Assembly (NCBI GenBank): GCA_035644195.1
Contig: DASQOZ010000030.1
Location: 3,767-67,766, forward strand
DNA length: 64,000 nt
Source: Candidatus Methylomirabilota bacterium
GTDB lineage: Bacteria; Verrucomicrobiota; Verrucomicrobiia; Limisphaerales; UBA11358
Direction of reading: 5' to 3'
In this document: positions 4,287 through 53,077 of the stretch, in pieces
Position numbering within the stretch: position 1 is the stretch's first letter
Layout: every line of letters starts with the position of its first letter
Made by a program: the position numbers and the translations under genes
The notes under the pieces: model-generated
Databases searched by the model: none
The model's input: only the letters and a program-made list of their open reading frames with translations
What the model was told of the DNA's origin: nothing

Positions 4287-5687
4287 TTAAAAATGAATTC
4301 CCACTGTCAGCATCAAGGCGTTGCTATGAAAACCATATTTGCCGTCGGCAGATTGTCCGGCGGAAAGGCCGGGAGTTGACGATGGCTTGCTGCCGGTGAC
4401 CGTATGCGTTGGACCATAGCCGAATTGATAGGTGATATCAAAATCAAAAGTTTTTCCATCGCGTCCGGCTCCGGCGCTGAAGAACTGGCGGTCCATGTCC
4501 GCCGCCAGTGGAGTGTAAAATTGATTTGGCACCGAGTTCTCGTTGAAAACGTAGCCGCCGCTGACGTGCCAGCCACTGTCAAAATATCGCGTCACGCCGA
4601 ATTCATACATCCAACTCGCCTGCCAATCGAGTGTCAAAGGGGGATTTTGTGGCCCTCCTAGCGGAGCAGTTCCAGATTGAAAGATAGTTGTTTTTCCAAA
4701 GCTACTCCAATCTGTATAGTTGGCATCGAATTCCAGATTCCATTTTGACGTGGGCCGATATGAAACGCCAAAAACAGCGGTCAATGGAAAGGTGAAGTTG
4801 GCATGTGCGGGCAATGACGTATCCGATATGCCTGCTGAAAATTGTTCGAATTCTGTGTGACCATTCAAAGTGACAGTTGCCGAACTGCGGAAGTTCGCGC
4901 CGATTGAAATTTGATCAATCGGTTGCCAAAGCACGCCCACATTACCGCCCACGCTCCAGCCGTCGCCTTTAAAATCGAAAAAATTGGTGTTGGGCGGTAG
5001 ATAAAATGGACGAAGACCTTGCTTTATATTCATGTTTACATAATTCACCATCGCGCCGCCGCCGATTGACAATGAATCCAATATCTTCACAGCAGCCACC
5101 GGATTGATGGTGATGTATTTCAACGAACCGCTCGTGGCGACTGTGCGAAAGCCCGTGTCCTGCGGCCATCTCATGCTTCCGCCGAACGGCGCATAAACAC
5201 CTAGGCCAAAGCTCAATGGCAAATTTGTCGGCGCATAAGCGTAAAAAAACTGGGGAACTGCGGCAAAATGATCCGAGCTGTGATAAGTCTTGCCGCTATT
5301 TGGAACACCACTCGGAGGACGGAAACTGGAGTCGAGGTCAATCGCATAAATGCCCGCGCGAAAATTATTATCCACGAGTTGAGCGATGCCCGCCGGATTA
5401 TAGTAAATAGCTGCGGCATTATCGGCAGTGGCTACGAACGCCTCTCCACGCGCAGTCGCAAAAGCATCCTGATCTGGAAGAGCGAAGCCGTTTGCAAAAA
5501 CATTTCCGGCCCAAATTCCCGAAACCAGAACCGTCGGCAAAAATTTCGATATGAAACCTTTGCAAAATATTTGCAGTGGCGGTCTGCGACCGCCGTCTGC
5601 TTTTGAAAACGCAAAAATTCGGCGGTCGCAGACCGCCGCTGCAATTTCAAATGAACCTTTTACGGTCTTTATGTTCCATTTGTTCAT
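4287..5687 (-). CDS. fadL: OmpP1/FadL/TodX family outer-membrane long-chain fatty acid transporter
   Basis: NGFAL...ARGEAFVATADNAAAIYYNPAG, GLGVYAPFG, terminal Phe; signal n-region lengthened by an in-frame element. Confidence 0.88.
   Translation of the reverse strand: MNKWNIKTVKGSFEIAAAVCDRRIFAFSKADGGRRPPLQIFCKGFISKFLPTVLVSGIWAGNVFANGFALPDQDAFATARGEAFVATADNAAAIYYNPAGIAQLVDNNFRAGIYAIDLDSSFRPPSGVPNSGKTYHSSDHFAAVPQFFYAYAPTNLPLSFGLGVYAPFGGSMRWPQDTGFRTVATSGSLKYITINPVAAVKILDSLSIGGGAMVNYVNMNIKQGLRPFYLPPNTNFFDFKGDGWSVGGNVGVLWQPIDQISIGANFRSSATVTLNGHTEFEQFSAGISDTSLPAHANFTFPLTAVFGVSYRPTSKWNLEFDANYTDWSSFGKTTIFQSGTAPLGGPQNPPLTLDWQASWMYEFGVTRYFDSGWHVSGGYVFNENSVPNQFYTPLAADMDRQFFSAGAGRDGKTFDFDITYQFGYGPTHTVTGSKPSSTPGLSAGQSADGKYGFHSNALMLTVGIHF
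5553..5669. mobile_element. 117-bp MITE-like element with internal REP doublet, in frame in the fadL signal region
   Basis: Ends GAAACCTTTGCAAAA...GGTCTT, flanked by TAT direct repeats (5550-5552, 5670-5672); internal GGCGGTCTGCGACCGCC/GGCGGTCGCAGACCGCC palindromes; related copy at 26124-26244. Confidence 0.7.
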
Positions 5688-5872
5688 AACGGGTTCCGGC
5701 AATCTGAACGGACGCTGACTGTGCGGCAGCTTACCTGTCGAACAGCCTCCTGCCAGCAAATTTCTTGCGCCGACCAATGCAGATGACCGATTCAGACAAA
5801 AAATGGGCGGCATTTGGCAAAAAACTCATTTTGCTCTCTTTACTTTTTTCCGACATAAGATAAGCTCTCGAC

Positions 5873-7123: not shown

Positions 7124-7133
7124 TCGGCAAAAA

Positions 7134-10918: not shown

Positions 10919-12124
10919 TTAATCGCTTTGCGCATCTTCAACCGCTTCGCGAATCGTCTCGCGAAATTTCTCCATGCCCTGATCAAACGCGGCGGAAATC
11001 GGCAGCACTTTCACTTTTTTAATTTTCGTTTTGAATTGTTTCAGATTTTTCTCGGCGACGGCTTCGTCCATTTTGTTGGCGACGACGAGGCGTGATTTTT
11101 CGAGCAATGCGGGATCGTAAAGTTCCAATTCTTTAAGCAATTGTTTGTAATCGTCCCACGGCGTGCGGCCGTCTGTGCCGGCCATGTCGAGCAGCAGCAC
11201 GAGAATTTTGCAGCGCTGGATGTGGCGCAAAAATTCGTGGCCGAGTCCGACGTTGTTGTGCGCGCCTTCAATCAAACCCGGCACGTCGCAGACCGTGAGC
11301 CGCTTCCAATCGGCATATTCGACGATGCCGATCTGCGGGTGCAACGTTGTGAAGGGATACGGCGCGACTTTCGGACGCGCTTTGGAAATGGCCGTGAGCA
11401 AGGTGGATTTGCCCGCGTTTGGATAACCGACAAGCCCGACCTCGGCCATGATGCGCAGTTCCAAAAGAAATTCGCCTTCCGTGCCGGGTTCTCCCGGTTG
11501 CGCGAATCGCGGCGTCTGATGGCGCGAGGTGGCGAAATTGCGGTTGCCCAATCCGCCGCGACCGCCTTTGCACAAAATAAATTGTTGTCCGTGTGTCGTG
11601 AGGTCGGCGACGAGTTCGCCTTTGCCTTCGTTGTCTTCGGCATCGGCCGTTCCTTCGGCTTCCTTGCTCAAATCAATTTCCAAAACAGGCCCGCCGCTTG
11701 AACTGCGGATGAGCGGACGTTTGCCAGTGCTGCTTGAAAAAATAGGATTTTTTTCTTCGGTTTCAACTTCTTCCTCATCGTCATCGTCAGGACTCTTCAT
11801 TTTCTTTTCGATGGGCGGCGTGGTGTCTTTAATTCGCCATACGAGCGTGCCGCAGGGGACTTTGATGATGAGATCGTCTCCCGCGTGACCGTCCATGCCT
11901 TTGCCCATACCGGCTTCGCCGCCCTTGGCGATGAGGCGCGGCTGATAATACTGCCCGATAAGATTGTTGAGGTCGTGGTTGGCTTGCAAGATTACGCTGC
12001 CGCCGCGACCGCCGTTGCCGCCGCTCGGCCCGCCCTTGGTGATGTAAGCCTCGCGATGGAACGCGACGCAGCCTTTGCCGCCGTGTCCCGCCTGCGCGTA
12101 AATTTTTATTTCGTCAATGAACAT
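10919..12124 (-). CDS. obgE: GTPase ObgE/CgtA with acidic insertion
   Basis: MFIDE, glycine-rich Obg fold, GYPNAGKST, YPFTT, DVPG, NKMD. Confidence 0.96.
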   Translation of the reverse strand: MFIDEIKIYAQAGHGGKGCVAFHREAYITKGGPSGGNGGRGGSVILQANHDLNNLIGQYYQPRLIAKGGEAGMGKGMDGHAGDDLIIKVPCGTLVWRIKDTTPPIEKKMKSPDDDDEEEVETEEKNPIFSSSTGKRPLIRSSSGGPVLEIDLSKEAEGTADAEDNEGKGELVADLTTHGQQFILCKGGRGGLGNRNFATSRHQTPRFAQPGEPGTEGEFLLELRIMAEVGLVGYPNAGKSTLLTAISKARPKVAPYPFTTLHPQIGIVEYADWKRLTVCDVPGLIEGAHNNVGLGHEFLRHIQRCKILVLLLDMAGTDGRTPWDDYKQLLKELELYDPALLEKSRLVVANKMDEAVAEKNLKQFKTKIKKVKVLPISAAFDQGMEKFRETIREAVEDAQSD

Positions 12125-12128
12125 GAAG

Positions 12129-12614
12129 TCATTCTCCGGCAAGTTGCAGAACTTGAAGGCGCAAATCCGATGAAACCCAAAAATTCGCTTCGCGCTCCAA
12201 ACGTTCCAATAAAATTTTGACGCTGGAAATTAATTTGTCATTTTTTGCGTCGGTTAATATGCCCAAAATTCCGACCGTGCGAACGCCCAATCTGATTGCA
12301 ACTTTTCGGCCGATTTTTTCATCAATCAATAGCGCGTCCGCTCTTTGTTTCAAAAACAGAGCGATGGCCGCAGCTTCGCCTGCGTCCAGTTCCACTTCGA
12401 CGGCTTCGACCGGATACGACTTTGGCGCAGATAAAATTTCAATCCAATCCGGCAAAACCAAACCGGAAAATCGTTTTTGAACTTTTGTCAGATGGACGAA
12501 TTCATCGGCCACTTCCGTTGGAATCAAAACGCGATGGAAAAGTTGTTGCAGCAAATGTTCGTGCTGAATGCGGCACAAGTTCAGAATGACCGAGGTGTCA
12601 GCGACGACAATCAT
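12129..12614 (-). CDS. DUF3368 PIN-like toxin
   Basis: VVADTS, LDAGEAAAI, LLIDE..GR, GILGIL. Confidence 0.85.
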   Translation of the reverse strand: MIVVADTSVILNLCRIQHEHLLQQLFHRVLIPTEVADEFVHLTKVQKRFSGLVLPDWIEILSAPKSYPVEAVEVELDAGEAAAIALFLKQRADALLIDEKIGRKVAIRLGVRTVGILGILTDAKNDKLISSVKILLERLEREANFWVSSDLRLQVLQLAGE

Positions 12615-16976: not shown

Positions 16977-17300
16977 ATGACGGAAACTCAAGCACATGAA
17001 TTTGTTGCTCGTTGGAATCGCATAATTTTTCCTCGGCGGGTGCGAACGGAAGCTGAAACTATTCGAGAGGTCAGACGGCGTTTGTTTATCGTAATGTTTT
17101 TTACATTTCTTTTGGTGTTTATATCTCTCTGGATTTCTATTCGGATTCCGCAAATAGGCAGCAAAATGTCATTAGCAGGAATTTTTAATTTTTTGTTATT
17201 CAGTTTTTCTATTTGGCAGATATTACGTTTGCGACAAGCACGTCGCGTTCTTGACCAATCGCAAACCGTAAATCGCGAATCGCAAATCATAAATGGCTAG
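16977..17300 (+). CDS. AT-rich hypothetical membrane protein (2 TM)
   Basis: 107-aa ORF with two hydrophobic segments; C-terminus encoded by a heptamer array at 17257-17291. Confidence 0.55.
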   Translation: MTETQAHEFVARWNRIIFPRRVRTEAETIREVRRRLFIVMFFTFLLVFISLWISIRIPQIGSKMSLAGIFNFLLFSFSIWQILRLRQARRVLDQSQTVNRESQIING

Positions 17301-17340
17301 ACCGACCAACATCACGATGTGCAGTTTCTGCGGCACTTGA
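17293..17340 (+). pseudogene. Duplicated 5' fragment of clpX ([15 protein letters not shown])
   Basis: 40 of 43 nt identical to clpX 17959-18001; the three differences are synonymous. Confidence 0.9.
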
Positions 17341-17365
17341 CTTGTCCATACTACAGCAATACAAT
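17337..17365 (+). promoter_or_regulatory. Sigma70-like promoter of brnTA (leaderless)
   Basis: TTGACT-17nt-TACAAT ending 6 nt before ATG 17372. Confidence 0.7.
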
Positions 17366-17371
17366 TAAGCA

Positions 17372-17662
17372 ATGGATTTGCTGGCGCACGTCGAAGGATT
17401 TGAGTGGGATGGCGGCAACAGTCATAAACCCGCCAAACATGGCGTCGCGGTGAAAGAAGCTGAAGAACCATTTTTTGATGCGTTTGCGCGAGTTCAAGAT
17501 GATGCGCTTCATTCGCAGGCGGAACAGCGCTGGTGGCTTTGGGGCAAAACGGCGCATGGCCGATTTTTGAAAATTGCCTTCACCGTTCGCAACCGAAAAA
17601 TCCGCGTGATTTCAGCGCGGGACATGAACAAAAAAGAAAAAATATTTTATGAATCGAAATGA
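17372..17662 (+). CDS. brnT: BrnT family toxin
   Basis: FEWD..N..KHGV...EAEE.F, HS..E.R, IRVISAR. Confidence 0.9.
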   Translation: MDLLAHVEGFEWDGGNSHKPAKHGVAVKEAEEPFFDAFARVQDDALHSQAEQRWWLWGKTAHGRFLKIAFTVRNRKIRVISARDMNKKEKIFYESK

Positions 17663-17897
17663 AAGAACCGTTCGCAAAATGACGGCGGCGGATGAAGCCG
17701 GCAGCGACATCACCAAATCGCGTCCAGCAGTTTTTCCCCGTCTTAAACCGACGCGTCGTTCGGTGACCGTTCGCGTGCCGACGATTGTGCTCGATAAAAT
17801 CATGGCGGTCGCAAATCGCCGCGGCTCACGTTATCAAAGCATGATTAACGAATGGCTCGCAGAGCGTGCTGACAATGAATTTCATCGCGCAGCGTAA
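17649..17897 (+). CDS. brnA: BrnA/CopG-like antitoxin
   Basis: LKPT..VTVRVP...YQSMI..WL; overlaps the toxin. Confidence 0.8.
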   Translation: MNRNERTVRKMTAADEAGSDITKSRPAVFPRLKPTRRSVTVRVPTIVLDKIMAVANRRGSRYQSMINEWLAERADNEFHRAA

Positions 17898-17958
17898 GAA
17901 AATTCCCGCAGTGGAAAAAATTTCGCCGTTAGTGTAATCTTTCTTAACCGGCAATTGA

Positions 17959-19257
17959 ATGGCCAGACCAACGAACATCACGATGTGCAGTTTCTGCGGC
18001 AAGACGCACGCGGAGGTGCGCAAGCTCATCGCCGGTCCGGGCGTTTACATCTGCGACAATTGCATCATCCTTTGCAAAAACGTCCTCGACCGCGAACTGC
18101 AACTTCAAAACCAGAAGAAGCAGCCGAAATTTTCCATCCCGCGTCCGGCGGAAATCAAACGGCAACTGGATTTGTATTGCGTCGGACAGGACCATGCGAA
18201 AAAAACTCTGGCCGTCGCCGTCCACAACCATTTCAAACGCATCCAGCCGGAAATTCCGGCGGCGGAAGGTGCGGAGGTTTCAAAAATTCCCGCGCAACCG
18301 CATCCGCACGCGGAGGTGGAAATCGAGAAGAGCAATATTTTGATGATCGGCCCGACCGGTTCGGGCAAAACATTGCTCGCGCGCACGCTCGCAAAAATTC
18401 TGGACGTGCCGTTTGCGATTGCCGACGCGACATCGTTGACCGAGGCCGGTTACGTCGGCGAGGACGTTGAGAACATCGTTTTGCGTTTGCTGCAAAACGC
18501 CGATTACGACGTGAAGCGCGCGCAGCGCGGCATAGTCTACATTGACGAGATTGACAAAATCGCGCGCAAAGCCGAGGGGCCGTCCATCACGCGCGACGTG
18601 AGCGGCGAAGGCGTGCAGCAGGGATTGCTGAAAATTCTCGAAGGCACGATCTGCAACGTGCCGCCGCAGGGCGGACGCAAACATCCGCAGCAGGAATACA
18701 TCCGCGTGGATACGTCGAGCATTTTGTTCATTTGCGGCGGCGCATTTGTCGGGTTGGAAAAAGCGATTCAACGGCGGATGGGCCGGAACGTGATCGGCTT
18801 TGGCGCGACGGGCGAAGGGCATCAGGCGGCGCACGCGGCGCGCGACCAGATGTTGCAGCACGTCGAGCCGGAAGATTTGCTGAACTTCGGGTTCATCCCC
18901 GAATTCATCGGGCGCTTGCCCGTCATCACGACGCTCGCGGAATTGAGCGAGCCGCAACTGGTTTCCATTTTGGCGGAAACGAAAAATGCGCTGACGAAAC
19001 AATTCGCCAAGCTCATGGCGATGGAAGGCGTGGAATTGGAATTCACGCCCGACGCGCTGCACGAACTTGCGACGCAGGCATTGCGCAAAGGCACGGGCGC
19101 GCGCGCGTTGCGCGGGCTGATCGAAAAGCTGATGTTGGATTTGATGTTCGATGCGCCGGAAGGCGGCAACATCGTGCATGTGAAAATCACGGCAGCCGTA
19201 GTGCGCGGCGAAAGCAAACCGATCGTCCGCCGCAAGCAGGACGCGGAAGCGGCGTAG
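17959..19257 (+). CDS. clpX: ATP-dependent Clp protease ATP-binding subunit ClpX
   Basis: CSFCGK zinc finger, [20 protein letters not shown]. Confidence 0.98.
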
Positions 19258-19780: not shown

Positions 19781-21865
19781 TCAGCGCAAAAATTCTTTCA
19801 ATTCGGATTCAACGCTCGTGGGCGGCTGACAGGAATTGCCGCTGCAAATATAAACCGTCGCTTCGGTTTTCGCCGGCAATGTCCGCGCAAATTCTTCCAC
19901 CGCGCCTGAATTTCCTGAAACAATTTTGTTCGGCTGATAAACCGAATGCGCCGCGCGAAGCAATTCTCGAAATTTTTTAGAATCTGAATTTCCGGCAACG
20001 ACCACGCGCTTTGGCTCCTGCAATGAAAAATCCAGCGCGTGCAACATAAACGGCATCGCCTGCGGAAAATGTTCCAGCCGATGCGCGAAGAATTTCAGTG
20101 TTTTCTCGGCAGCTTCGGCAAAACTTTTTCTGCCGGTGATCGCACCCAGTTTCAGCAATGACAAAGTGGCGACGGAATTTCCGCTCGGCTCCGCGCCGTC
20201 GTAATCGTCTTTGACGCGCAGGATCAAATCGTTCGATTCATTCGTGCTTTGCCAGAAGCCGCCTTTCTCCGAATCAAAAAATCTCGCGAGCATCGCATCG
20301 GCCAGTTCAATGGCAAAATCCAAATGTCCCGGCTCAAGCGTTGCTTCATAAAACTCGATGACTCCGGAAAGCAAGAATGCGTAAGCTTCAAGTAATTGCA
20401 CGTTGTCGCGCTCGCCGTCGCGCCAGCGATGAAAGAGCGTTTTTGATTTTTCGTCCCACAATTTCCCCTGGATGAATCGCAAATTTTTCTCCGCCGCCGC
20501 GCGATATTTTTTGTCGTTCAAAATTGCAGAAGCGCGTGTAAATGCGCCGAGCATCAGGCCATTCCACGATGCGAGAATTTTGTCATCCAGATGCGGGCGA
20601 ATGCGTTTTGCGCGCACGCCGAGCATTTTTTGTTTGGCGGATGAGGGCAGAGCGTAATCGTCAGAATTGGACGCGCCCCTCACCCCATCGGATGGGGAGA
20701 GGGTGTCCGAAGGACGGGTGAGGGGATTCACAATGCTCAAAACATTTTGTCCGGCCAATGGCTGCGGATGGCTGTGGTCAACGAAGTTTCCTTCCGCCGT
20801 GATGCCAAAGTGTTTCGCAGCGACGTTGAATTCATCCACGGTCAGCAATTTGGAAAGTTCGTCCTTCGTCCAACAATAAAATTTTCCTTCATGGCCTTCG
20901 CTGTCGGCGTCTTCGGCGGAAAAAAATCCGCCATCGGTATGCGTCATGTCGCGCAAAACGTAGTCGAGAATATCGCGCACAGTATCGGCGTGGTGCGCGT
21001 CGCCGCTGACGAGAAACGCGTCGAGGTAAAGCTGCGCGAGTTGCGCGTTGTCATAGAGCATTTTTTCGAAATGCGGCACGAGCCATCCGGCGTCCACGGA
21101 ATAACGCGCAAATCCGCCGCCGAGTTGATCGTGAATACCGCCGTCGGCCATGCGTTCGCAGGTGTGCAAGACCATTTTTGTCGCTTCGTCGTCCTGAAAT
21201 CGTTTCGCGCAGCGCAGCAGCAGCGATGGCATGGACGGCTGTGGAAATTTCGGCGCGCCGCCAAATCCGCCGTGCTGCGGGTCATACATTTTTTTGAAAA
21301 AATCCGCCGCATTTTTCAAAATGCCCGCGTTCAAAAGAGAATTTGATTCAACGGAATTTGTCATCGCATTTTCGAGTCGCGCATGAATTTCCTTGGCGGA
21401 AGCGGCGATTTCGTCTTTTTGCTCCTGCCAGAGCATTGAGATTTGCTGTAGTAATTGCAAAAAACTTGGACGACCGTAGCGCGCGTCCGGCGGAAAATAG
21501 GTGCCGCCGAAAAACGGTTTCAGATCCGGCGTGAGAAAAACGTTCATCGGCCAGCCGCCGCCGGTCGTGGATTGCACGAACGTCATGTAAATTTTATCAA
21601 CGTCCGGGCGTTCCTCGCGGTCAACCTTGATGCTGACGAAATGTTCGTTCAGAAATTGGCCGACGCGCTCGTCCTCAAAACTTTCGCGTTCCATCACATG
21701 GCACCAATGGCAGGTCGAATAGCCGACGCTCAAAAAAACCGGCTTGTTTTCTGCGCGCGCCTTTTCAAACGCCTCGGCGTTCCATGCGAACCAGTCCACG
21801 GGATTGTGCGCGTGCTGCAAAAGGTAGGGCGATTTTTCGCGCGCGAGGCGGTTTGTAAATTTCAC
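19781..21865 (-). CDS. Thioredoxin-domain protein YyaL/SSP411 family
   Basis: [37 protein letters not shown]. Confidence 0.95.
20676..20725. repeat. CCCCTCACCC...GGAGAGGG palindromic element inside the yyaL-like CDS
   Basis: Encodes [17 protein letters not shown]; intergenic relatives at 28165-28280, 29520-29562 and 37573-37671. Confidence 0.75.
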
Positions 21866-23603: not shown

Positions 23604-24021
23604 TCCGGCAGAAACAGAATCGCTCGGCGCGCAATTTGGCCGCACCGCGCAAAGCGGGCTGGTCATCGCGCTTTCGGGCGAACTCGGCGCGGGCAAGACG
23701 CAATTTGTCAAAGGCCTGGCGCGCGGCCTCGGGATTTCCGTGCGCGTGCATTCGCCGACGTTCACGCTCATCAACGAATACGGCGGCGGACGGTTGAAAT
23801 TGTTTCATCTGGATTTGTATCGGCTCGAAACGCCTGCACAGATTTTATCGGCGGGCGTCGGGGAATTTTTGCAGCCGGACGGCGTGAGCGTGATTGAATG
23901 GGCGGAAAGGCTGAAGCCAGAAGCCGGAAGCCAGAAATCGGAAGGAAAATGGATTATGATAAAAATAGAAATCGCGAGCGAAGCGGAACGGAAAATTATT
24001 TATGACGATTCTGGCGCTTGA
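23581..24021 (+). CDS. tsaE: t6A biosynthesis ATPase TsaE
   Basis: GELGAGKT, SPTFTL, HLDLYRL, IEWAE. Confidence 0.95.
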   Translation: MATFISHSPAETESLGAQFGRTAQSGLVIALSGELGAGKTQFVKGLARGLGISVRVHSPTFTLINEYGGGRLKLFHLDLYRLETPAQILSAGVGEFLQPDGVSVIEWAERLKPEAGSQKSEGKWIMIKIEIASEAERKIIYDDSGA

Positions 24022-24676
24022 ATTTTCGTCGGGGCAACGCAGCGTGGCCGTCGCGAACGGGAATTCCGTTTTAAGCGAAGCCGTTGAAACCGGCGGGCGC
24101 AACACCGCCGCGTTCGGCATGATTGAGCGCGTTCTGGCAGAGGCGAAAATCGAGCGCGAGCAAATTGATGCGATTGCCGTCGGACTTGGTCCCGGCTCTT
24201 ACACTGGAATCCGTTCGGCGATTGCCATCGCGCAAGGGTGGCAATTGGCGCGCAAAATAAAACTGCTTGGCGTCAGCAGCGCGGAGGCAATTGCGGCGCA
24301 GGCGCAGTCAGAAAAAATCTTTGGCGATGTGAACGTGGTGGTTGACGCCCAGCGCGGCGAAATTTATCTGGCGCGATATGAAATTTCGGAAGAGGCGGTG
24401 AAGGAAATCGGGCCGTTGCGGATTGCCAATCCTTTGGACTGCGGCGACATGTCGCCGCTTTCAAAGCGCGGACATGTCCGCGCACTCCAAAACATTTTTA
24501 TCGGGCCGGAGGCGACCAAATGGTTTCCGGCTGGGAAAGTTATTTTTCCGCGCGCTGCGGCCGTGGCGCGACTGGCGGCTGGACGAAGCGATTTTATCTC
24601 CAGCGAAAAACTGGAGCCGATTTATTTGAGGGAAACGAGCTTTGTGAAGGCGGTGAGGCCGAAAACGGCAATTTGA
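24002..24676 (+). CDS. tsaB: t6A biosynthesis protein TsaB
   Basis: GPGSYTGIR, DAQRGEIY, LEPIYLR. Confidence 0.95.
   Translation: MTILALEFSSGQRSVAVANGNSVLSEAVETGGRNTAAFGMIERVLAEAKIEREQIDAIAVGLGPGSYTGIRSAIAIAQGWQLARKIKLLGVSSAEAIAAQAQSEKIFGDVNVVVDAQRGEIYLARYEISEEAVKEIGPLRIANPLDCGDMSPLSKRGHVRALQNIFIGPEATKWFPAGKVIFPRAAAVARLAAGRSDFISSEKLEPIYLRETSFVKAVRPKTAI
24433..24491. repeat. TTTGGA(C/G)TGCG...TCCAAA multi-hairpin element, in frame in tsaB
   Basis: Two hairpins; copies at 25482-25567 and 29027-29086. Confidence 0.85.
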
Positions 24677-24724: not shown

Positions 24725-24768
24725 AAATGGTGGCCGTGCGCAAGCACCGGCTCGCAGGGACGCTCGCC
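24725..24768. repeat. Left copy of a 44-bp inverted repeat flanking the minor-pilin cassette
   Basis: 43 of 44 nt identical to the reverse complement of 27932-27975. Confidence 0.85.
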
Positions 24769-25466: not shown

Positions 25467-26116
25467 AATTTATGAGACTGATTTGGAGTGCGCGGATATG
25501 TCCGCGCTTTAGAACGCCGCGACATGTCGCGGCGAGGCAAAGCGGTGTCATGTCACCGCAGTCCAAATCGCGCGGCATGACGCTGGTTGAGGTCATGGTG
25601 GCGATGGCGGCAGGCATCCTGATTTTGGCCTCGTTTCTGGCCATCACCGTGAATGTTGCAAAAAGTTTCAAGGCAGTGACGAATTATCGCTACATCAGCA
25701 AGATGGACCGCTACACGCTGGACATAATGGGACGTGACATTCGCATGGCCACGCATGTGACATCTTCTCTTTCCCTGACCAATAGGGTGGACATGACAAA
25801 TTCTTTTGGCGACAGCTATTTTTACCTCTGGGACGGTAGCAACAACATGACCCGCAGCTACACTTATTCCACCAACACTTCAGTCGCTGGAACGCTTGCT
25901 GGAACGACGACGACGACGACTCTGCTGACCAATTGCAATTCATTTTCGCTTTCCTTCCTTGCGCGCGATCTGAACAACAACCTGGCATTTACGAACGCTG
26001 TTTCTGCTTCAAACGTCAAACTGATCCAAGTCTCGTGGAGTTGCGCGCGATCCATCTGGGGCGGCAGCACAAACAGCGAAGGCGAGCGCACGGCGCAATT
26101 CACGCTGCGCAACTGA
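25463..26116 (+). CDS. Type IV prepilin-like protein (PilW-like), leader lengthened by a palindromic element
   Basis: G/MTLVEVMVA, RDIRMA, terminal LRN; start at 25463 or 25472. Confidence 0.85.
   Translation: MKFMRLIWSARICPRFRTPRHVAARQSGVMSPQSKSRGMTLVEVMVAMAAGILILASFLAITVNVAKSFKAVTNYRYISKMDRYTLDIMGRDIRMATHVTSSLSLTNRVDMTNSFGDSYFYLWDGSNNMTRSYTYSTNTSVAGTLAGTTTTTTLLTNCNSFSLSFLARDLNNNLAFTNAVSASNVKLIQVSWSCARSIWGGSTNSEGERTAQFTLRN
25482..25567. repeat. Three-hairpin TTTGGAGTGCG...GTCCAAA element in the prepilin leader
   Basis: Same family as the tsaB insert. Confidence 0.85.
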
Positions 26117-26123
26117 TTGAAAT

Positions 26124-26244
26124 GAGACATCGGCAAAACCCGTTTTTATTTGTGGCGGCGGTCTGTGACCGCCGTGGTTTTGCTGAAATTTCAGTATCCG
26201 TCGGCGCTCGCAGAGCGCCGCTGCAGTTGTTTTGCAGAGGTTTC
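26124..26244. mobile_element. MITE-like element with REP doublet, between pilW-like and pilX-like genes
   Basis: GAGACATCGGCAAAA...TTTTGCAGAGGTTTC ends; internal GGCGGTCTGTGACCGCC; related to 5553-5669. Confidence 0.65.
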
Positions 26245-27920: not shown

Positions 27921-28280
27921 ATGGCTGGTGCGGCGAGCGTCCCCGCGAGCCGGTGCTTGCGCACGGCCACCATTTTCCGGCTTGCAAGGACTCTCGCTTC
28001 ACCAATTAACTTACTCACAATTTTTTGGGAGGGACGGCGTGTCGCCGTCCCTGAAAAAATTGTAGGAGACGACGTAAGGAGTCTGATTTCAAATTCAGAA
28101 TTCGGAGTTAAAACAATGAGTCTTGTTACCTCGACTCCTGCAATTGAAACTATGCAAAGGATTTCTCCCTCTCCTCGCTAAACGAGGAGAGGGCCGGGGT
28201 GAGGAGCTTTGATTTATTGTTACAATTTTATTACAAACCCCTCACCCTGACCCTCTCCCCCGCTTGGACGGGGAGAGGGA
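27921..28280. repeat. Stack of four different palindromic repeat families
   Basis: 27927-28004 doublet; 28027-28051 hairpin; 28061-28142 GTAG-type doublet; 28165-28280 CCCTCTCC doublet. Confidence 0.8.
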
Positions 28281-28330
28281 ATTATTCAAATTCATTTGAG
28301 CCTCGTCGCTTCCGCTCCTACACTACGCGC

Positions 28331-29440
28331 GTGAAAGCCGCCATCCTCCACGGCAAACTCAATATCCGAATCGAAGACATCGCGCCGCCGCCGCTCAAGC
28401 CGGGCGAAGTCCGCATCCGCATCGAAGCCGCGCTCACCTGCGGCACAGACTTGAAAGTTTTCAAACGCGGCTATCACGCCAAAATGATCGTCCCGCCCGC
28501 CGTCTTCGGCCATGAACTGGCCGGAACGATTTCGGAAATCAGAAGCCAGAAGCCAGAAGTCAGAAGTCAGAATTGGGAAAACGGCGAGCGCGTGGTCGTG
28601 GCCAATTCCGCGCCGTGCGGCGATTGTTTCTTCTGCAAAAACAACCGGGAAAATCTTTGCGACGACCTGCAATTTCTCAACGGCGCGTATGCGGAAGAAA
28701 TTGTCGTCCCCGCGCGCTTTGTCCAAAAAAATCTTTTGCGCCTGAAACCGGAAACGCCTTTTCGCGACGCGGCCTTGACCGAGCCGCTCGCCTGTGTCGT
28801 CCAAGGTGTCGAGGACTCGAAGTTGCGCGCGGGACAAAACGTTTTGATTCTCGGCGCGGGACCGATCGGCCTGATGTTCGTCGCGCTGGCGAAAAATCTT
28901 GGTTGTCACGTCGCCGTTGCCGGTCGCGGCGAAAAGCGATTGCAAATGGCGCAACGATTGGGCGCAATAGAAATCATTAACGTTGGCGATGGAGAAAATC
29001 TTGTCGAAAAAATTCGCACGGCAGTTTTTGGAGTGCGCGGACACGTCCGCGCTTTGAAAAGCGGCGATATGTCGCCGCAGTCCAAATCCGCGCTCGGTTT
29101 TGACGTAGTGATTGAAGCGGTCGGCAAGCCGGAAGCATGGGAAGCTGCCGTGCAATTGGTCCGCAAAGGCGGCACGGTGAATTTTTTTGGCGGCTGTCCT
29201 TCGGGCGCGAGCGTCTCGCTGGACACGCAATTGATCCATTATTCCAATCTCACGCTGCTGGCGAGTTTTCATCACACGCCGCGCGCGATCCGTCGGGCGT
29301 TGGAATTCATCGAGGCGGGCGTGGTTCGCGCCGCAGATTTTGTGGACGGCGAATGTCCGCTGACGCGGCTGCCGGAATTGTTCAAGTCAATGGCCGAGGG
29401 AAATCGCGCAATTAAAACGCTGATCAAAGTCCACGAATAA
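28331..29440 (+). CDS. Zinc-binding (MDR) alcohol/sugar dehydrogenase
   Basis: CGTD, GHE, CGDCFFC..C, GAGPIG; GTG start at 28331. Confidence 0.93.
   Translation: MKAAILHGKLNIRIEDIAPPPLKPGEVRIRIEAALTCGTDLKVFKRGYHAKMIVPPAVFGHELAGTISEIRSQKPEVRSQNWENGERVVVANSAPCGDCFFCKNNRENLCDDLQFLNGAYAEEIVVPARFVQKNLLRLKPETPFRDAALTEPLACVVQGVEDSKLRAGQNVLILGAGPIGLMFVALAKNLGCHVAVAGRGEKRLQMAQRLGAIEIINVGDGENLVEKIRTAVFGVRGHVRALKSGDMSPQSKSALGFDVVIEAVGKPEAWEAAVQLVRKGGTVNFFGGCPSGASVSLDTQLIHYSNLTLLASFHHTPRAIRRALEFIEAGVVRAADFVDGECPLTRLPELFKSMAEGNRAIKTLIKVHE
29027..29086. repeat. 60-bp palindromic element in frame in the dehydrogenase
   Basis: Encodes FGVRGHVRALKSGDMSPQSK; same family as the tsaB insert. Confidence 0.85.
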
Positions 29441-33740: not shown

Positions 33741-33810
33741 AGGATGAAAGTTTCCGCGAGGTTGCCGCGCCGATTTTGTTTCATAATTCATCATTCATAC
33801 TTCATCCTTT
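33719..33810. repeat. Inverted heptamer arrays (ATGAAnn / nnTTCAT)
   Basis: Tandem 7-mers forming a hairpin between the NUDIX gene and tadA. Confidence 0.7.
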
Positions 33811-37770: not shown

Positions 37771-39831
37771 ATGGCCGAGCCAAAAGAAAATCCGCTCATG
37801 GAAAAAATCGTGTCGCTGTGCAAGCGGCGCGGCTTCATTTTTCAATCGTCCGAGATTTACGGCGGTCTCAATGGTTTTTGGGATTACGGCCCGCTCGGCG
37901 CGGAACTCAAGCGCAACGTCAAGGAACTCTGGTGGCACGCCATGACCCGCCAGCGCGACGACGTCGCCGGCCTCGAAGCGACCATCATCATGTCACCGCA
38001 AATCTGGAAAGCCAGCGGCCATGTGGACACGTTTGCAGATACGATGCGCGCTTGTCCGCTCACAAAAAAACTTGTCCGAGCCGATCAAGTCGAACCTCAA
38101 AGTGGAATTGCTTTTACGTTTGAGGGAAGCGTGAGTAAATACAATTTTGATTTGGGAATGACTTTGTGTTCTGCGTTATTAAAACAAGAATCCGAAGACG
38201 TTCGTAAATCAACTCTCTTGCAAATTGCGACTCAAATTGTGAGCGCAAAGAAACCGTTGAGCGATGAAGAATCAAAATCTGCTTTAGAAAAAATAAAATC
38301 GGAAATAGACGCGATAAAAGGAAATCAAACTGCCTTAATACAACAATCAGCCGTCTTGGAACTTGTTAGTCTTTTGCAAGACGGCAGTTCAAAAGAACCT
38401 TTTACGATTCTTGTGCAAAACGGAAAGCCACCGGAAAGCGCAAGAAAAGCGGCTGGAGAATTTTACATTTCGCACGGTATTGTTGAGCCAGTTTTACTTG
38501 GTGAGACAAATCAAAAAGTTGAAAACTCAATTGATTTTCATCCCGAAAGCCGAGTGAAACTTGATTCAGCTCGCCCTTTCAACTTGATGTTAAAGACTCA
38601 CACCGGTCCAATCGAGTCAGACGAGAATATTGCTTATCTCCGCCCCGAAACGGCGCAGGCGATTTTCGCGCAGTTCAAAAATGTTTTGGAAACGTCGCGG
38701 CAGAAAGTCCCGTTCGGAATTGCCCAAGTTGGAAAAGCCTTTCGCAACGAAATCACGCCGCGCAATTTCACCTTCCGCTCGCGCGAGTTCGAGCAGATGG
38801 AACTGGAATTTTTCATCAAGCCGGATGAAGTCATCGAAGCAATTAAGTTTTCAGTTTCAAGTGTTCAGCCCGAATCTGCGGAACTGAAAACTGAAAACTT
38901 GAAACTTGAAACTTCCGCCAACTGGGGTTGGCGGGAATGGCACAAGTATTGGGTCGAGGAACGTGTGCGCTTTTACGAAGGCATCGGGCTGTCGCGCGAG
39001 ACGCTGGGTTTTCATCATCAAACGCCAGCGGAACTCGCGCATTACGCGCGGGCTTGCACGGATATTTTGTTCAAATTTCCGTTCAGCAAAAAGGACGAGC
39101 ACGGCAACGTGGCCGGCGACGAACTCGAAGGCATCGCCGCGCGCAGCGATTTTGATTTGTCGCAACACCAAAGATTTTCCGGCAAGCCGATGGGCGTGTT
39201 TGACGACGAGTTGCGCGCCGCGTGGACGAAGTTGCCGAAGGAAAAGCAGGACGATCTGTGGAAGCGTTATTACGACAACCGCAAAAATTACCTGACGAAA
39301 TGCGCCAGGCCGGACGAAACGCCGGAGCAAATCTCCAAGCAGGCGACGGACGACGCGAACGGTCTCGCAAAAGGCCAATACATTCCGCACGTCATCGAGC
39401 CGAGCGCGGGCGTTGACCGTTTGATTCTCGCGCTCATCGCCAATGCGTATTCCGAAGTCACCGAAACCGACGACAAAGGAAAATCCGAAACGCGCGTGAC
39501 GATGAAATTTCATCCGCGCGTCGCGCCGATCAAAGTTGCTGTGCTGCCATTACTGAAAAACAAACCGGAGCTTGTGAAAAAAGCGGAATCCGTGCGCGCG
39601 TTGCTGCGCCCATGGATGAATGTGTTTTACGACGAGGCTGGTTCGATTGGCCGACGTTACGCGCGCCAGGACGAAGCCGGCACGCCGTTCTGCGTGACGA
39701 TTGATTTCGACACGCTCGGCGAAAAACCGGAATTGTTGGACACTGTGACGATTCGCCATCGCGACGATGGCAAGCAGGAACGTTTGAAAATTTCCGAACT
39801 TCTGCCATTTTTGCTTTCTAAAATACGCTGA
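37771..39831 (+). CDS. glyQS: Glycine--tRNA ligase (alpha2 type) with insertions
   Basis: KRRGF, DYGPLG, YLRPETAQ, FRNEITP, AHYA, IEPSAGVDR, anticodon-binding domain. Confidence 0.96.
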   Translation: MAEPKENPLMEKIVSLCKRRGFIFQSSEIYGGLNGFWDYGPLGAELKRNVKELWWHAMTRQRDDVAGLEATIIMSPQIWKASGHVDTFADTMRACPLTKKLVRADQVEPQSGIAFTFEGSVSKYNFDLGMTLCSALLKQESEDVRKSTLLQIATQIVSAKKPLSDEESKSALEKIKSEIDAIKGNQTALIQQSAVLELVSLLQDGSSKEPFTILVQNGKPPESARKAAGEFYISHGIVEPVLLGETNQKVENSIDFHPESRVKLDSARPFNLMLKTHTGPIESDENIAYLRPETAQAIFAQFKNVLETSRQKVPFGIAQVGKAFRNEITPRNFTFRSREFEQMELEFFIKPDEVIEAIKFSVSSVQPESAELKTENLKLETSANWGWREWHKYWVEERVRFYEGIGLSRETLGFHHQTPAELAHYARACTDILFKFPFSKKDEHGNVAGDELEGIAARSDFDLSQHQRFSGKPMGVFDDELRAAWTKLPKEKQDDLWKRYYDNRKNYLTKCARPDETPEQISKQATDDANGLAKGQYIPHVIEPSAGVDRLILALIANAYSEVTETDDKGKSETRVTMKFHPRVAPIKVAVLPLLKNKPELVKKAESVRALLRPWMNVFYDEAGSIGRRYARQDEAGTPFCVTIDFDTLGEKPELLDTVTIRHRDDGKQERLKISELLPFLLSKIR

Positions 39832-41156: not shown

Positions 41157-41157
41157 T

Positions 41158-41218
41158 TGTAGGAGACGACGTAAGGAGTCTCTATTTTTGATTTGAGTCT
41201 CGTTACCTCGACTCCTAC
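41158..41218. repeat. GTAG-type REP doublet supplying the stop codon of the adjacent gene
   Basis: TGTAGGAGACGACGTAAGGAGTCT...GACTCCTAC, near-identical to 28061-28142. Confidence 0.8.
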
Positions 41219-42693
41219 GCAGATATTTTCCATCCGCTCACCAATTCGGGAAATGGACAATTTTCGCAAATCGCATTTGAATGTTCGCAAAAATCGCGAA
41301 CGATTTGCATCAAACCCTGCTGCGCGGCTGCGGTCTTGAAATTTTTTGCATTTAAAACTCCCAACAAACGTTGCCGCGCCAGTTTCAAAACCGAATTGTC
41401 TTCCGCCGCTGGCCACGAAAAATATCTTCGCTCAATTTCATTTTGAATTTTTTCATTGCCGCCTTCCTTCGCGCGAATCCAAAGCCAGGGCAAAATCACA
41501 TTCACGGCCAAATCAGTGACGCGCGCATCGCCGAGCAACGGCTGCGGCTTTTTCAGTCGCGCGGATTTGAACGTCCAATGCCACGACCAGAATTCGTCGC
41601 GTTCAACTTGAAGAATTTCTTTCAATGATTTGTAGCAGCCGACGTGAGTCGGCTCAAAATTTGAAATTAGAGCGGACTTACGTCCGCTGCTACGATGAGT
41701 TGGAAAATCCATCGCGCTCCATTTTTCAATTTTTGAAATGAAATTTTTGTCCGCAAGCCAATGCGACGCCAGCGCCATTCGCCGTTGTGGATGATTTGCC
41801 GGACGCAAACCGTGAAATTTCCAAACTGCACGCGGCAAAATGCAATTTTCAAATTCGTCGCGCTCGCGCCACCAGAAATCCCAGGCATGGCGCAGATAAG
41901 TGTCCGAACTTTTTTGAGCGCGCGTCAATTGATCCGGCAGCAATCCGCTGATGCCAAGCAGTCGCGCCTGAAATTCAAAGGCGAATTTTGAGCCGGGCGA
42001 CCAGCGTGATTTCGTTTCGGCGAGGTTTTGCATCGGCCAGACGTTGTGTTTGTAGCCGAGCGCGCGAAACAAATTTTCCCAAAACGTTTGCTCCCAGCCG
42101 ACATTTTTGGCGCGGGCGCGAAAATACGACGCTTTGTTTTCAAATCGAACGCTCGCGGCTTGCTGCAACAGTTCCGTTAATTTTGTTTCGTCCAATTCAC
42201 GCAACGGCGCGCAGCATTTACCGCGAAGATTTTCCGGCAGCGATTCGTTTTCAAGCGACAAACTTAATTCCGCGAGCGGCGCGTCGAGAGCATTCTTCAA
42301 GGACAAAGCTGTGGGCGCATTTTCAACCGGTTTGGCTTCTTCCCAAATGACGTGGAGCAGGACGTTTTTGAAGCTTGGATTTTTATCATGACTGTGCGCG
42401 CGCCAGCCATTTGCGTGCAAATCAATTTCGACGTCGCCGGAACGCGGAGCATCGTCGCCGATTTGCAAAACGGCGTTGCGAAAATCAGGCCCGCCTTCCA
42501 CGCTTAGAAATCCCGGATGAAAAATGCGAACCGTTTTTCCATCGGCGGTTTTTAATTCATTGCGACACAACCGTTGGTGCTGCCAGATGGATTGAAGCAG
42601 CCGTTCGTTTGGAAAATGTTCATCGCGCAGAAAATTTTGTTCGCGCGCTTTTTCGCGCCATCGGCTGTAAAAATTTTCTGAAAACGGATTCAC
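41215..42693 (-). CDS. DUF2851 family protein
   Basis: E.LLQ.IW, GPDF, GDVEI, HV.W, RPANHP..R; start uncertain (up to 42756). Confidence 0.8.
   Translation of the reverse strand: MNPFSENFYSRWREKAREQNFLRDEHFPNERLLQSIWQHQRLCRNELKTADGKTVRIFHPGFLSVEGGPDFRNAVLQIGDDAPRSGDVEIDLHANGWRAHSHDKNPSFKNVLLHVIWEEAKPVENAPTALSLKNALDAPLAELSLSLENESLPENLRGKCCAPLRELDETKLTELLQQAASVRFENKASYFRARAKNVGWEQTFWENLFRALGYKHNVWPMQNLAETKSRWSPGSKFAFEFQARLLGISGLLPDQLTRAQKSSDTYLRHAWDFWWRERDEFENCILPRAVWKFHGLRPANHPQRRMALASHWLADKNFISKIEKWSAMDFPTHRSSGRKSALISNFEPTHVGCYKSLKEILQVERDEFWSWHWTFKSARLKKPQPLLGDARVTDLAVNVILPWLWIRAKEGGNEKIQNEIERRYFSWPAAEDNSVLKLARQRLLGVLNAKNFKTAAAQQGLMQIVRDFCEHSNAICENCPFPELVSGWKISA
41631..41694. repeat. GTAG-type REP doublet in frame in the DUF2851 gene
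   Basis: TGTAGCAGCCGACGTGAGTCGGCTC...GCTGCTAC, encoding RSSGRKSALISNFEPTHVGCY. Confidence 0.8.
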
Positions 42694-42873
42694 TTGAAAT
42701 TGCTTTTGCTCGGATAGTCGGGCAAAGTCAAGTTCTGCGTGAAATTTTGAGCGCATTGTATGGCGGATTTGCCTGTTTATAAAAACACATCGTTGTTGCG
42801 CGGCGTAAATGCTGCTCGCCGCGACACGGATTTTTCGGCTAAACTGCCGGAAGTCCCGGCGGTCGAAAATGCC

Positions 42874-50710: not shown

Positions 50711-50728
50711 ATTGCGACACCGACAAAT

Positions 50729-53077
50729 TCACCCCAAATTCACCGGATCAATGTCCACGGCCAGCGTGACGTCTTCGGGCAGCACCAGCGATTGGATGAT
50801 GCGCGCCAGTTCTCGGCTCAACGCGCTCATCGCCCGCGTCCGCAGCATGATCTGGTGGCGATAAAAAGTTTCCGCGCGTGCAAGTGGCGCGGCAGCGGGG
50901 CCGGCGATGATTAAATCGGAAAACAAATTTTGGCTGCGCTTTGCTTGGGGAGCGCGTGCGTCCCGCACGCGCTGTTTGGCGTCCTCGCCAAACAGTTCCG
51001 TTGCGGTTGACGAGACGTCAACCGCTGCGCCCGGGACGGGCGCGCTCCCTAAATTTTTCTCCAGTTCACGTTTCAAATGGTCGGCGGAGAATTTTACTTT
51101 TTCCTCGTTGCGGCCTTTCAGTGTGAGCAGCGCGACGCGGCTGACGGGCGGATATTTCAGTTGTTCGCGGAATTCGATTTCCTGTTCGTAAAAACCGTTG
51201 AAGTCGTGACGTCGCGCGTATTGGATCGCCGGATGAAACGGCGCGAACGCCTGCACAAACACCTCGCCCTCCACGTCGCCGCGCCCGGCGCGCCCGGCGA
51301 CTTGCGTGAGCAACTGGAAGGTGCGCTCGCCCGCGCGTAAATCCGGCTGATGCAGCGCAAGGTCGGCGTAAATGATGCCGACGAGCGTGACATTCGGAAA
51401 GTGCAGTCCTTTCGCGATCATCTGCGTGCCGACGAGGATGTCGGTCCTGCCCGCGCGAAAATCGCCGAGCACTTTGCGGTAATCGTCCTTGCGCTTCATC
51501 GTGTCGGCGTCCATGCGTTTGATGCGCGCCTTCGGAAAAAGTTTGGCGAGCGTCTCTTCGACCTTTTGCGTGCCGGTGCCGGAAAAACGGATCGCGGGAT
51601 TTCTACATTTCTCGTTTGGGCAAACCAACGGAACTTTTTCGACGTGGCCGCAGATGTGGCAGGCGAGCTTTTGTTCCTGCCGGTGAAACGTGAGCGCGAG
51701 GCTGCAATTCGGGCAATTGCAAACATAACCGCACTTCGGGCATTGCAACGAAGTCGAGTAACCGCGCCGGTTCAAAAATAAAATTGTCTGCTCACCTTTG
51801 TCCAGCCGTTGGTTAATCGCTTCCTTCAGTTGCGGGGAAAAAAGCGGCGTGCCCTTTTCTTTTGTCGCGGCCTGCCTCATGTCCACGACGCGGACGCGCG
51901 GCATTTTTTGATTGTCCACGCGCTCCGGCAATTCGAGCAGCGTGAATTTGCCGCGTTTGCAATTGTAAAAACTTTCGAGCGACGGCGTGGCAGAGCCGAG
52001 CACCACGACGGCATTTTCCATCTGGCCGCGCATGATGGCCACGTCGCGCGCGTGATAGCGCGGCGCTTCCTCCTGCTTGTAACTCGTCTCGTGCTCCTCG
52101 TCCACGATGATGAGACCGAGCGGCTCGACCGGCGCAAAAATCGCCGAACGCGCGCCGATGAGGATGCGCGCCCGGCCCTGCCGGATTTTGTGCCACTCGT
52201 CGTGACGCTCGCCCGCGCTCAAATGCGAATGCAAAACCGCGACGAGCGTCTGCAATTTTCCCGAACTGAATCGCGCCTTGAACCGTTCGACTGTCTGCGG
52301 CGTCAAAGAAATTTCCGGCACGAGGACAATTGCACCTTTGCCTTGTTCCAGCGCATGCGCGAGCGCTTGCAAATAAATTTCAGTTTTCCCCGAACCTGTC
52401 ACGCCATGAAGCAGAAAAGTGTGCGAAGAATTTTCAGCGTCCATCGCTTTTGTGATTTCACCCAATGCTTTCGCTTGCGCGGAATTCAACACGATATTTT
52501 GCGTCGGCAAAATCGTTTCGCGCGCATAAGGATCGCGCTCGGAGATTTCAGAAGTGACTTCGATGAGTCCGCGATCTTCCAATTTGCGAACGGTTGCGGC
52601 GGTCGTTTCGGCAAGCTCAAGCAATTCCGCCAGCAAAATTTCGCGCCGCTCTTCGATGATGTTCCAAACTTCCTGCTGCCGTTTCGCCAGTTTCGGAAAT
52701 TCACCGCTCAACGGCAGCGCGCGGACGAACAATTGTTTTTTCCAGCCTTCTTTTTCTTTGCGGATCGCTTCGGGCAAGACACTTTTCAGCGCTGTCTCGG
52801 GCGCGCAGCAATAATATTCACCAATCCAGCGCGCGAGCTTCAAAACTTTCGGAGTCACCAAGCTTTGCGCGCCGATGATTTTGAGAATCGGTTTTAATTT
52901 TGCAAGAGATGATTCTTCAGCCAGCGCCGTGACGGTGCCGAAAATTTTCCGCGCGCCAGATGAACCAAAAGGCACTTGCACGCGCGTTCCGACTTCGATT
53001 TGTCCGGCAAGCTCCGGCGGAATTGAATAATCAAATTCCTTGCGCAATGCGATTTCGAGGCTGACGCGGGCAATCAT
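50729..53077 (-). CDS. priA: Primosomal protein N'
   Basis: GVTGSGKTE, DEEH, Cys clusters, QVAGRAGR. Confidence 0.97.
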   Translation of the reverse strand: MIARVSLEIALRKEFDYSIPPELAGQIEVGTRVQVPFGSSGARKIFGTVTALAEESSLAKLKPILKIIGAQSLVTPKVLKLARWIGEYYCCAPETALKSVLPEAIRKEKEGWKKQLFVRALPLSGEFPKLAKRQQEVWNIIEERREILLAELLELAETTAATVRKLEDRGLIEVTSEISERDPYARETILPTQNIVLNSAQAKALGEITKAMDAENSSHTFLLHGVTGSGKTEIYLQALAHALEQGKGAIVLVPEISLTPQTVERFKARFSSGKLQTLVAVLHSHLSAGERHDEWHKIRQGRARILIGARSAIFAPVEPLGLIIVDEEHETSYKQEEAPRYHARDVAIMRGQMENAVVVLGSATPSLESFYNCKRGKFTLLELPERVDNQKMPRVRVVDMRQAATKEKGTPLFSPQLKEAINQRLDKGEQTILFLNRRGYSTSLQCPKCGYVCNCPNCSLALTFHRQEQKLACHICGHVEKVPLVCPNEKCRNPAIRFSGTGTQKVEETLAKLFPKARIKRMDADTMKRKDDYRKVLGDFRAGRTDILVGTQMIAKGLHFPNVTLVGIIYADLALHQPDLRAGERTFQLLTQVAGRAGRGDVEGEVFVQAFAPFHPAIQYARRHDFNGFYEQEIEFREQLKYPPVSRVALLTLKGRNEEKVKFSADHLKRELEKNLGSAPVPGAAVDVSSTATELFGEDAKQRVRDARAPQAKRSQNLFSDLIIAGPAAAPLARAETFYRHQIMLRTRAMSALSRELARIIQSLVLPEDVTLAVDIDPVNLG
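50945..51052. repeat. 108-bp four-hairpin element in frame in priA
   Basis: GGGAGCGCG...CGCGCTCCC ends; encodes LGSAPVPGAAVDVSSTATELFGEDAKQRVRDARAPQ. Confidence 0.8.

Follow-up and report, generated by a model that had tools for sequence, protein, structure and literature searches.

The stretch of DNA analysed here (the window; 64,000 nucleotides) is C30:3767-67766 of G000, a genome of 2.37 Mb in 113 contigs, 88.9% complete, that originates from a soil metagenome and whose close homologues carry the database labels Verrucomicrobiota/Limisphaerales. Seven of its protein-coding genes, encoding a FadL/OMPP1 protein, a YyaL-like protein, TsaB, a PilW-like prepilin, a Zn-dependent dehydrogenase, a DUF2851 protein and PriA, contain palindromic DNA elements in frame, some of them of the repetitive extragenic palindrome (REP) type. 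A sequence-only reading of the window had proposed this, and had counted about five element families, three of them with intergenic copies as well. Both statements held. All seven hairpins were found at their proposed positions within uninterrupted open reading frames (ORFs), and the family matches of the hosts agreed with the names given to them. The elements belong to families E (fadL), B (yyaL-like), D (tsaB, the pilW-like gene and the dehydrogenase gene), C (DUF2851) and F (priA), of which E, B and C also occur between genes in the window (Table 1). The dehydrogenase is encoded by the plus-strand ORF 28199-29440, not by the antisense ORF.

Hairpin elements within intact genes

Each element folds more stably than every segment of the same length in its own gene, the values being -81.0 kcal/mol against a best background of -47.7 for priA, and -33.1 against -27.8 kcal/mol for tsaB. 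By blastn, the genome contains 26 loci of family E, 15 of B, 17 of D, 19 of C and 3 of F. In-frame inserts of a heptamer type, in the dehydrogenase gene, glyS and tsaE, had been missed by the sequence-only reading; at both the glyS and the tsaE site, a relative has a different heptamer-like peptide.

Assembly error does not account for the in-frame elements. The yyaL-like element is covered with 0 differences by a contig from a second study, and the elements of the pilW-like and DUF2851 genes are spanned by contigs of a possible source run. Empty alleles were not found in the two DNA runs examined, both of little coverage. Intact paralogues of the interrupted genes, a possibility raised with the original proposal, were not found either, each host having a single full-length match in the 88.9%-complete genome.

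Table 1. Host genes, repeat elements and related sites in the window
Feature	Coordinates	Strand	Remarks
fadL/OMPP1 gene	4287..5687	-	probable start ATG 5687, fits the MNRRN-type start of orthologues
family E REP doublet in fadL	5571..5645 (75-nt core)	.	signal-peptide n-region; the interval first proposed, 5553-5669, takes in flanks
yyaL-like thioredoxin-domain gene (DUF255)	19781..21865	-	family match
family B hairpin in yyaL-like gene	20676..20725	.	arm type of DUF559 cassette
heptamer tandem near tsaE 3' end	23907..23943	+	in frame; tsaE = 23581-24021
tsaB	24002..24676	+	single full-length copy found
family D doublet in tsaB	24433..24491	.	
prepilin-like (N-methyl motif; pilW-like) gene	25472..26116	+	probable start ATG 25472
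family D triplet in pilW-like gene	25482..25567	.	prepilin leader, upstream of G|M cleavage motif
intergenic family E copy	26148..26228	.	
intergenic family B copy	28163..28280	.	others near 29520 and 37593
Zn-dependent dehydrogenase gene	28328..29440	+	5' end approximate
heptamer tandem in dehydrogenase gene	28536..28573	+	in frame, net +5 aa; second hot spot of the gene
family D doublet in dehydrogenase gene	29027..29086	.	net +21 aa
inverted heptamer pair in glyS	38843..38917	.	in frame; glyS = 37771-39831
family C copy at infC/DUF2851 junction	41157..41215	.	another at 28060
DUF2851 gene	41215..42756	-	
family C GTAG-tagged REP doublet in DUF2851 gene	41630..41695	.	net +18 aa
priA	50729..53080	-	single copy found; start from orthologue alignment
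family F element in priA (site 2, C-terminal loop)	50945..51052	.	GGGAGCGC-ended double hairpin, net +40 aa
priA site 1, linker before Walker A strand	52418..52444	-	empty in the window

Comparison with orthologues

Between 19 and 30 orthologues from the genus were compared for each gene (relatives are coded G or L plus a number, such as G023, G032 or L283). The inserts are indels relative to these orthologues, as had been predicted, with empty sites in some or most orthologues of each gene. The insert peptide is absent at its site from 29 of 30 TsaB orthologues, and the fadL insert and the family D insert of the dehydrogenase are absent from 18 of 19 and 16 of 19, respectively. Twenty-one of 30 orthologues lack the yyaL-like insert (net +16 amino acids, aa) and 20 of 29 that of DUF2851; in the other nine cases for each gene the site is filled, by several families. 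Site 2 of priA is empty in only 4 of 29 genomes because most relatives carry another filler there. The comparison for the pilW-like gene is weak, extending to 7 of 40 genomes at 32-45% identity.

The further expectation of clean indels in surface loops was right for part of the set. Most genes show net insertions, but in tsaB 20 repeat codons stand in place of about 11 native residues (net +9 aa), a replacement rather than a clean insertion, and two elements lie in cleaved leaders. The fadL element is placed after the start motif shared with orthologues and before the hydrophobic stretch, within the signal peptide, and the pilW-like element occupies the prepilin leader; neither should therefore reach the mature protein. 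An AlphaFold model of the window TsaB keeps the fold (predicted template modelling score, pTM, 0.83) and shows residues 150-161 as a loop between two strands with a predicted local distance difference test score (pLDDT) below 50. Sequence matches in the PDB did not cover the insert regions.

Peptides encoded by the elements are rich in Ser, Pro, Gly and Arg and are read in both orientations and in several phases. In a count confined to family F (10 pairs), changes at codon positions 1, 2 and 3 numbered 50, 93 and 63 in the peptide versus 26, 12 and 273 in the neighbouring core. With no third-position excess, the F peptide shows no sign of constraint at the protein level. Judged from these sequences, translation of the inserts into harmless loop or leader peptides is likely. 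The idea that they form a multi-family source of new peptide sequence thus holds only literally: the peptides appear unselected and replaceable, and two of the seven sit in cleaved leaders. Nothing shows that they gained a function, given their mixed phases and orientations, the absent third-position excess and their replacement by unrelated families in relatives.

A genome-wide census

Family hidden Markov models (HMMs) trained on G000 called 591 repeat loci, 31.2 kb in all; the reversed genome gave 0-1 hits per model, except for two tandem models with 9 and 10. The depth of all-against-all blastn matches, tried for the same census, was dropped as too permissive. Comparison with G023, which took in 1.90 Mb of its approximately 2.9 Mb, made 874 orthologous genes testable, of which 74 contain a total of 88 elements within their aligned part, a count that keeps two calls resembling acidic or serine tracts (obgE at window position 11772 and one on C81). 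Of these 88 sites, 49 are shorter in G023, 10 have the same family there, 3 have another family, and 26 carry a peptide of similar length that the models did not call. Many of these 26 resemble other families by eye, and the G000-trained HMMs overlook diverged fillers in relatives. HMM-called elements occur in G023 at 13 of the 88 sites versus 0.35 expected.

Among 45 hosts scanned via their G023 orthologues, those named include alaS, ileS, valS, fmt, tsaD, mnmE, glmS, murB, folC, mutS, uvrC, mfd, aceE and purine genes; DNA-repair and tRNA-related genes are heavily present. Many of these genes are usually essential, and the claim that the elements reach such genes extends to this larger set. 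An element lies at the break in 0 of 9 genes that are split in G000, the detectable halves being those of at least 90 aa.

The internal share differs between families: 11 of 22 loci for H, 6 of 17 for D and 20 of 73 for B, against 1 of 160 for nonamers and 0 of 26 for the arm type that frames the Y1 genes of G000. Families C, D, E and F fold as doublets and have 6-70 loci each. The tetranucleotide GTAG/GTGG is present at the stem foot in C and in consensus copies of E; D and F start with GGAG/GGAC, and B is untagged. Elements with nonamer arms (160 loci) are found almost solely at gene junctions, mainly between co-directional genes, unlike every other family.

Reuse of sites and sharing of fillers

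Insertions of at least 8 aa cluster at two sites in PriA (783 aa), four to five in YyaL (694 aa), three in DUF2851 and two in the dehydrogenase. Across 29 genomes, priA site 2 is either empty or occupied by fillers of the F, A, B, heptamer or an unrecognisable type, which are scattered across the tree. The priA flanks of G000, G002, G012 and G023 are close, yet their fillers are F', A, heptamer and F, respectively, and each is similar, even in its extra flanking bases, to what a distant genome has at that site. (The tree of the priA core does not represent the species tree, and the 3' half of priA is itself common to these four genomes.) The F alleles of G023 and G032 differ at 2 of 102 nucleotides versus 34 of 70 nearby third positions. 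The flanks of G023 are nearer to G002, a holder of family A, with third-position identity of 0.80-0.90 upstream and 0.80-1.00 downstream against comparison values of 0.52-0.78 and 0.57-0.60. G031 and G062 share a near-identical B allele at priA site 2 and, in alaS, a near-identical tract of about 440 codons that includes an H allele, which represents long-tract exchange. The identity of the elements falls to background right at their flanks. On these alignments, filled alleles have likely been exchanged between species. Filled and empty forms of priA site 2 show A/T-rich flanks and no clean target-site duplication by eye, in relatives too diverged for exact junctions.

Cassettes framed by the same arms

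In G000, inverted arms frame one intact DUF559 gene (family B arms), four four-helix-bundle genes (PF05635; heptamer arms, family h), seven GxxExxY genes (PF13366; nonamer arms, family n) and two Y1 genes (G-type arms). Genes for REP-associated tyrosine transposases (RAYT; NF047646) are present in 33 of 40 relatives, and examples with F, H-like or J arms occur among them; J arms flank RAYT in L283. Of 150 RAYT matches in relatives, 21 lie in frames longer than 900 aa. No in-frame DUF559 or four-helix-bundle cassette was found, 0 of 26 and 0 of 78 matches, respectively, falling in frames longer than 250 aa, and all were stand-alone.

At priA site 1, about 200 in-frame RAYT codons lie between hairpin arms in 5 of 30 loci examined and in G014, and other relatives have heptamer pairs at the site. 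Two proteins with this insert, scanned against NF047646, scored 81.8 and 77.9 bits, the cut-off being 80. The best 120 of 1,142 long proteins matching the region are all PriA-type bar one alanyl-tRNA synthetase (AlaRS); the HUH motif is intact in 116 of these 120 and the catalytic Tyr in 118. The in-frame RAYT domains have no start of their own. Nonsynonymous divergence (dN) among the fused proteins is 0.03-0.12 versus a synonymous divergence (dS) of 0.35 to saturation, a pattern indicating that the RAYT domain in PriA evolves under purifying selection.

On the PriA tree, RAYT cassettes were gained or lost in frame many times. Distances between RAYT domains correlate with those of the PriA core (Spearman 0.68) as do two parts of the core with each other (0.55). 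Since the RAYT tree tracks the core like the control, the cassette looks old and repeatedly lost in frame, not recently spread. Horizontal spread of the PriA RAYT domain is unsupported by this tree comparison, in which the sample is biased to RAYT carriers.

The alaS genes of G023, G063, G064 and G033 contain RAYT cassettes whose arms begin and end like the priA element of the window, and G000 has a family H doublet at one of the alaS sites that hold RAYT elsewhere. Arms of family F start with GGGGAGC, match the TIRtron motif GGGGWSAS and frame a tyrosine transposase gene in relatives, the window copy being arm-only. From the likeness of the alaS arms, we infer that the window F element may be the arm-only form of a RAYT cassette.

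Some further hosts are recorded here. In G020 (L296), RAYT lies in frame within a gene that we take, from its motifs, to be ClpB-like. An AlaRS frame of 1,490 aa in G061:C1 has two RAYT domains, and a further RAYT host, of 1,477 aa, lies in G011:C4. One AlaRS loop (G000:C100:1710-4925; L297-L326) measures 22 aa in G036 and is occupied by a RAYT cassette in four genomes, by an arm-only relic in G006 and, in most of the remaining genomes, G000 among them, by unrelated fillers of 30-130 aa, often of low GC (0.38-0.50 vs 0.55-0.60) and different in almost every species. From these sequences, the loop looks like a place of repeated in-frame capture of foreign DNA.

Proposed mechanism and alternatives

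We consider it probable, though by no means certain, that the seven hairpins are small non-coding repeats lying in frame in working genes, likely deposited in trans by enzymes of the RAYT type, likely translated, and likely passed between species by recombination. The families are multi-copy and mainly intergenic, and genes framed by the same arms exist. By analogy with REP and RAYT biology, an enzyme would cut and rejoin single-stranded DNA at the hairpin and leave an arm pair elsewhere. For the REP-like families the mobilisers are likely RAYT tyrosine transposases; a catalytic role for the DUF559 and four-helix-bundle families would be a guess from gene context. The elements that persist are those that keep the frame at a few permissive sites per protein, for which purifying selection would be the filter. 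Depending on the species, one and the same site is then empty or carries an intact RAYT cassette or one of several families, and distant species have near-identical fillers, presumably carried by homologous recombination through the conserved flanking coding DNA.

Several observations weigh against this account. No RAYT (NF047646) was found in G000 at its 88.9% completeness, and the two Y1 genes of this genome bear arms of the sole hairpin family never seen in frame. In relatives, the G000-trained models recognised arms (J or A) at only 4 of 22 parsed RAYT loci, so that cognate enzymes for families C, D and E were not identified. The open-frame content of the families explains their in-frame share only loosely, and shared alleles might owe part of their high identity to a slow rate of change in hairpin DNA instead of to transfer. 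Finally, the placement of both PriA sites between a helix and a strand is suggested by modelling of low confidence; a relative's full-length PriA-RAYT model was poor (mean pLDDT 49.6, pTM 0.33).

Deposition followed by ordinary recombination has to be weighed against targeted homing, in which an enzyme would cut the resident hairpin, and an incoming element of about 100 nucleotides would either serve as the template for repair of the break or take its place. Loops would be docking sites at which families displace each other, and RAYT cassettes would resemble inteins that never splice. Such a process, a possibility that we entertain tentatively, would explain why fillers replace each other instead of accumulating, why four genomes whose priA flanks are close differ in their filler (F, A, a heptamer and a second F allele), and why element identity ends at the flanks. 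It would also suit the many in-frame gains and losses of RAYT, its preserved catalytic residues, its dN far below dS, and its occurrence in long frames where the DUF559 and four-helix-bundle genes have none. Yet RAYT distances follow the PriA core, as fits an old insertion with repeated loss; long-tract exchange of the ordinary kind exists in alaS; and REPINs (REP doublets forming hairpins) are described, in the part of the source available, as vertically inherited (10.1101/2024.10.14.618302). In its widest form, the permissive loops would be a fixed genus-wide docking system in which RAYT cassettes and arm-only hairpins (RAYT, DUF559, four-helix-bundle) displace one another, a picture that we regard as speculative. 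In this picture the elements would also travel between species as short patches, in a non-splicing analogue of intein homing that would keep rewriting the loop peptides of essential proteins.

As a further alternative, the hairpins might be removed or skipped in RNA, like rRNA intervening sequences or by ribosomal bypass, which would leave the proteins normal. Their RNA folds are very stable, and the four-helix-bundle and GxxExxY genes, which heptamer and nonamer arms surround, belong to families linked to intervening sequences (Pfam name 23S_rRNA_IVP). Removal would, however, need no conservation of the frame, whereas 88 inserts are in frame and none of the nine split genes has one at its break; excision would not restore the ancestral TsaB, from which native codons were deleted; and the in-frame RAYT domains lack a start of their own and appear to be under purifying selection. 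We regard RNA-level removal as highly improbable. Hardly better are the prospects of retention by the host, with the inserts acting as regulators (of pausing or mRNA stability) or as adaptive peptides. Shared alleles are indeed more conserved than nearby synonymous sites, and the heavy representation of DNA-repair and tRNA-related genes is met likewise in other species, according to the available portion of PMC3733652. Against this, the genus also has empty alleles at each of the sites tested, the same site is used by unrelated families, both orientations occur and a third-position excess is absent.

Other features of the window and genome

In the window, inverted family A copies (24727-24774 and 27926-27973) bracket a 3.1-kb pilin-like cluster between tsaB and the dehydrogenase gene, and an inverted heptamer pair (33719-33809) overlaps the stop of a NUDIX gene and the first ATG of a tadA-like gene. 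At 17292-18001, two small ORFs (17372-17662 and 17649-17897), which we take to be a toxin-antitoxin pair of the BrnT/BrnA type, lie between the two copies of a duplicated 44-nucleotide sequence from the clpX 5' end (17292-17335 and 17958-18001); the arrangement looks like a minimal island that has integrated where clpX begins. At 57174-57481, two tRNA-like sequences are inverted relative to each other, with 226 nucleotides between them. Insertions that are not repeat-derived also occur: in obgE (10919-12142), one of about 65 aa, which includes an acidic tract, lies within the Obg domain and is shared by G023, and, relative to G023, valS (G000:C29:3312-6917) has an in-frame insertion of 183 aa and the gene at G000:C37:4969-8997 has in-frame insertions of 94, 40 and 24 aa.

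Relation to known systems and implications

Rickettsia palindromic elements (RPEs) had been offered as a model. They are indeed alike in that several families insert in frame into unrelated housekeeping genes; the available parts of PMC10969869 and PMC3733652 describe RPE-1 as about 150 bp long with a conserved peptide, and RPE-4/6 as CGTC-tagged and without a known transposase. The elements described here differ in measuring 50-108 nucleotides, in being read in several phases and both orientations without peptide-level constraint, and in that one family has RAYT-bearing versions. A closer precedent is Opitutus terrae, of the same phylum, for which the accessible text of Di Nocera et al. 2013 (PMC3733652) reports 70 intragenic REP entries of three families (GTAG-17, -18 and -19), in frame as singles and dimers and encoding 7-50 aa, repair genes included. 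In both cases several REP families are in frame, and the O. terrae peptide type GTGVPPV recurs here as family H. Multi-family in-frame REPs are thus already known, and this genome adds an example. In that text, recurrent use of one site was found only for Xanthomonas recB; what is new here relative to it is the reuse of the same loops by unrelated families, the sharing of filled alleles between species, in-frame arms that are not REPs (DUF559, heptamer) and RAYT cassettes inside host genes. By strict definition, families C and E are REPs, F is one in part (TIRtron arms) and B is not; a cognate RAYT was not found in the genome.

TIRtrons and REPtrons, RAYT genes framed by hairpin arms (TIRtrons with the GGGGWSAS motif; PMC3733652, as available), share with our elements the arm-framed RAYT genes and the dispersed arm-only copies. 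The nesting is reversed in our relatives, where a whole cassette lies in frame in priA, alaS and ClpB-like genes. The portion of Quentin et al. 2018 (PMC6006769) at hand places REPs in frame inside tnpA-REP genes of subclass 2.4; long fused proteins were discarded there as fusions or annotation errors. Heptamer repeats have been described without a mobiliser (PMC4679880, in part), and PMC3000692, on indels in the Planctomycetes-Verrucomicrobia-Chlamydiae group, does not mention repeats or palindromes. Our search, outside which lay most subscription papers and bioRxiv supplements, found no description of repeat cassettes with DUF559, GxxExxY or four-helix-bundle genes, nor of one family replacing another at a given site, of filled loops being shared laterally, or of RAYT inside priA or synthetase genes.

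Judged from the comparative pattern, RAYT transposases, generally regarded as immobile single genes, seem to persist by residing in genes whose loss is not tolerated. The pattern is at odds with a strictly vertical passage of REP doublets. The filled sites show which loops of aminoacyl-tRNA synthetases, PriA and the t6A enzymes naturally tolerate insertions. In genomes of this kind, homoplastic indels are present in about 8% of core genes and mislead work on signature indels and phylogeny.

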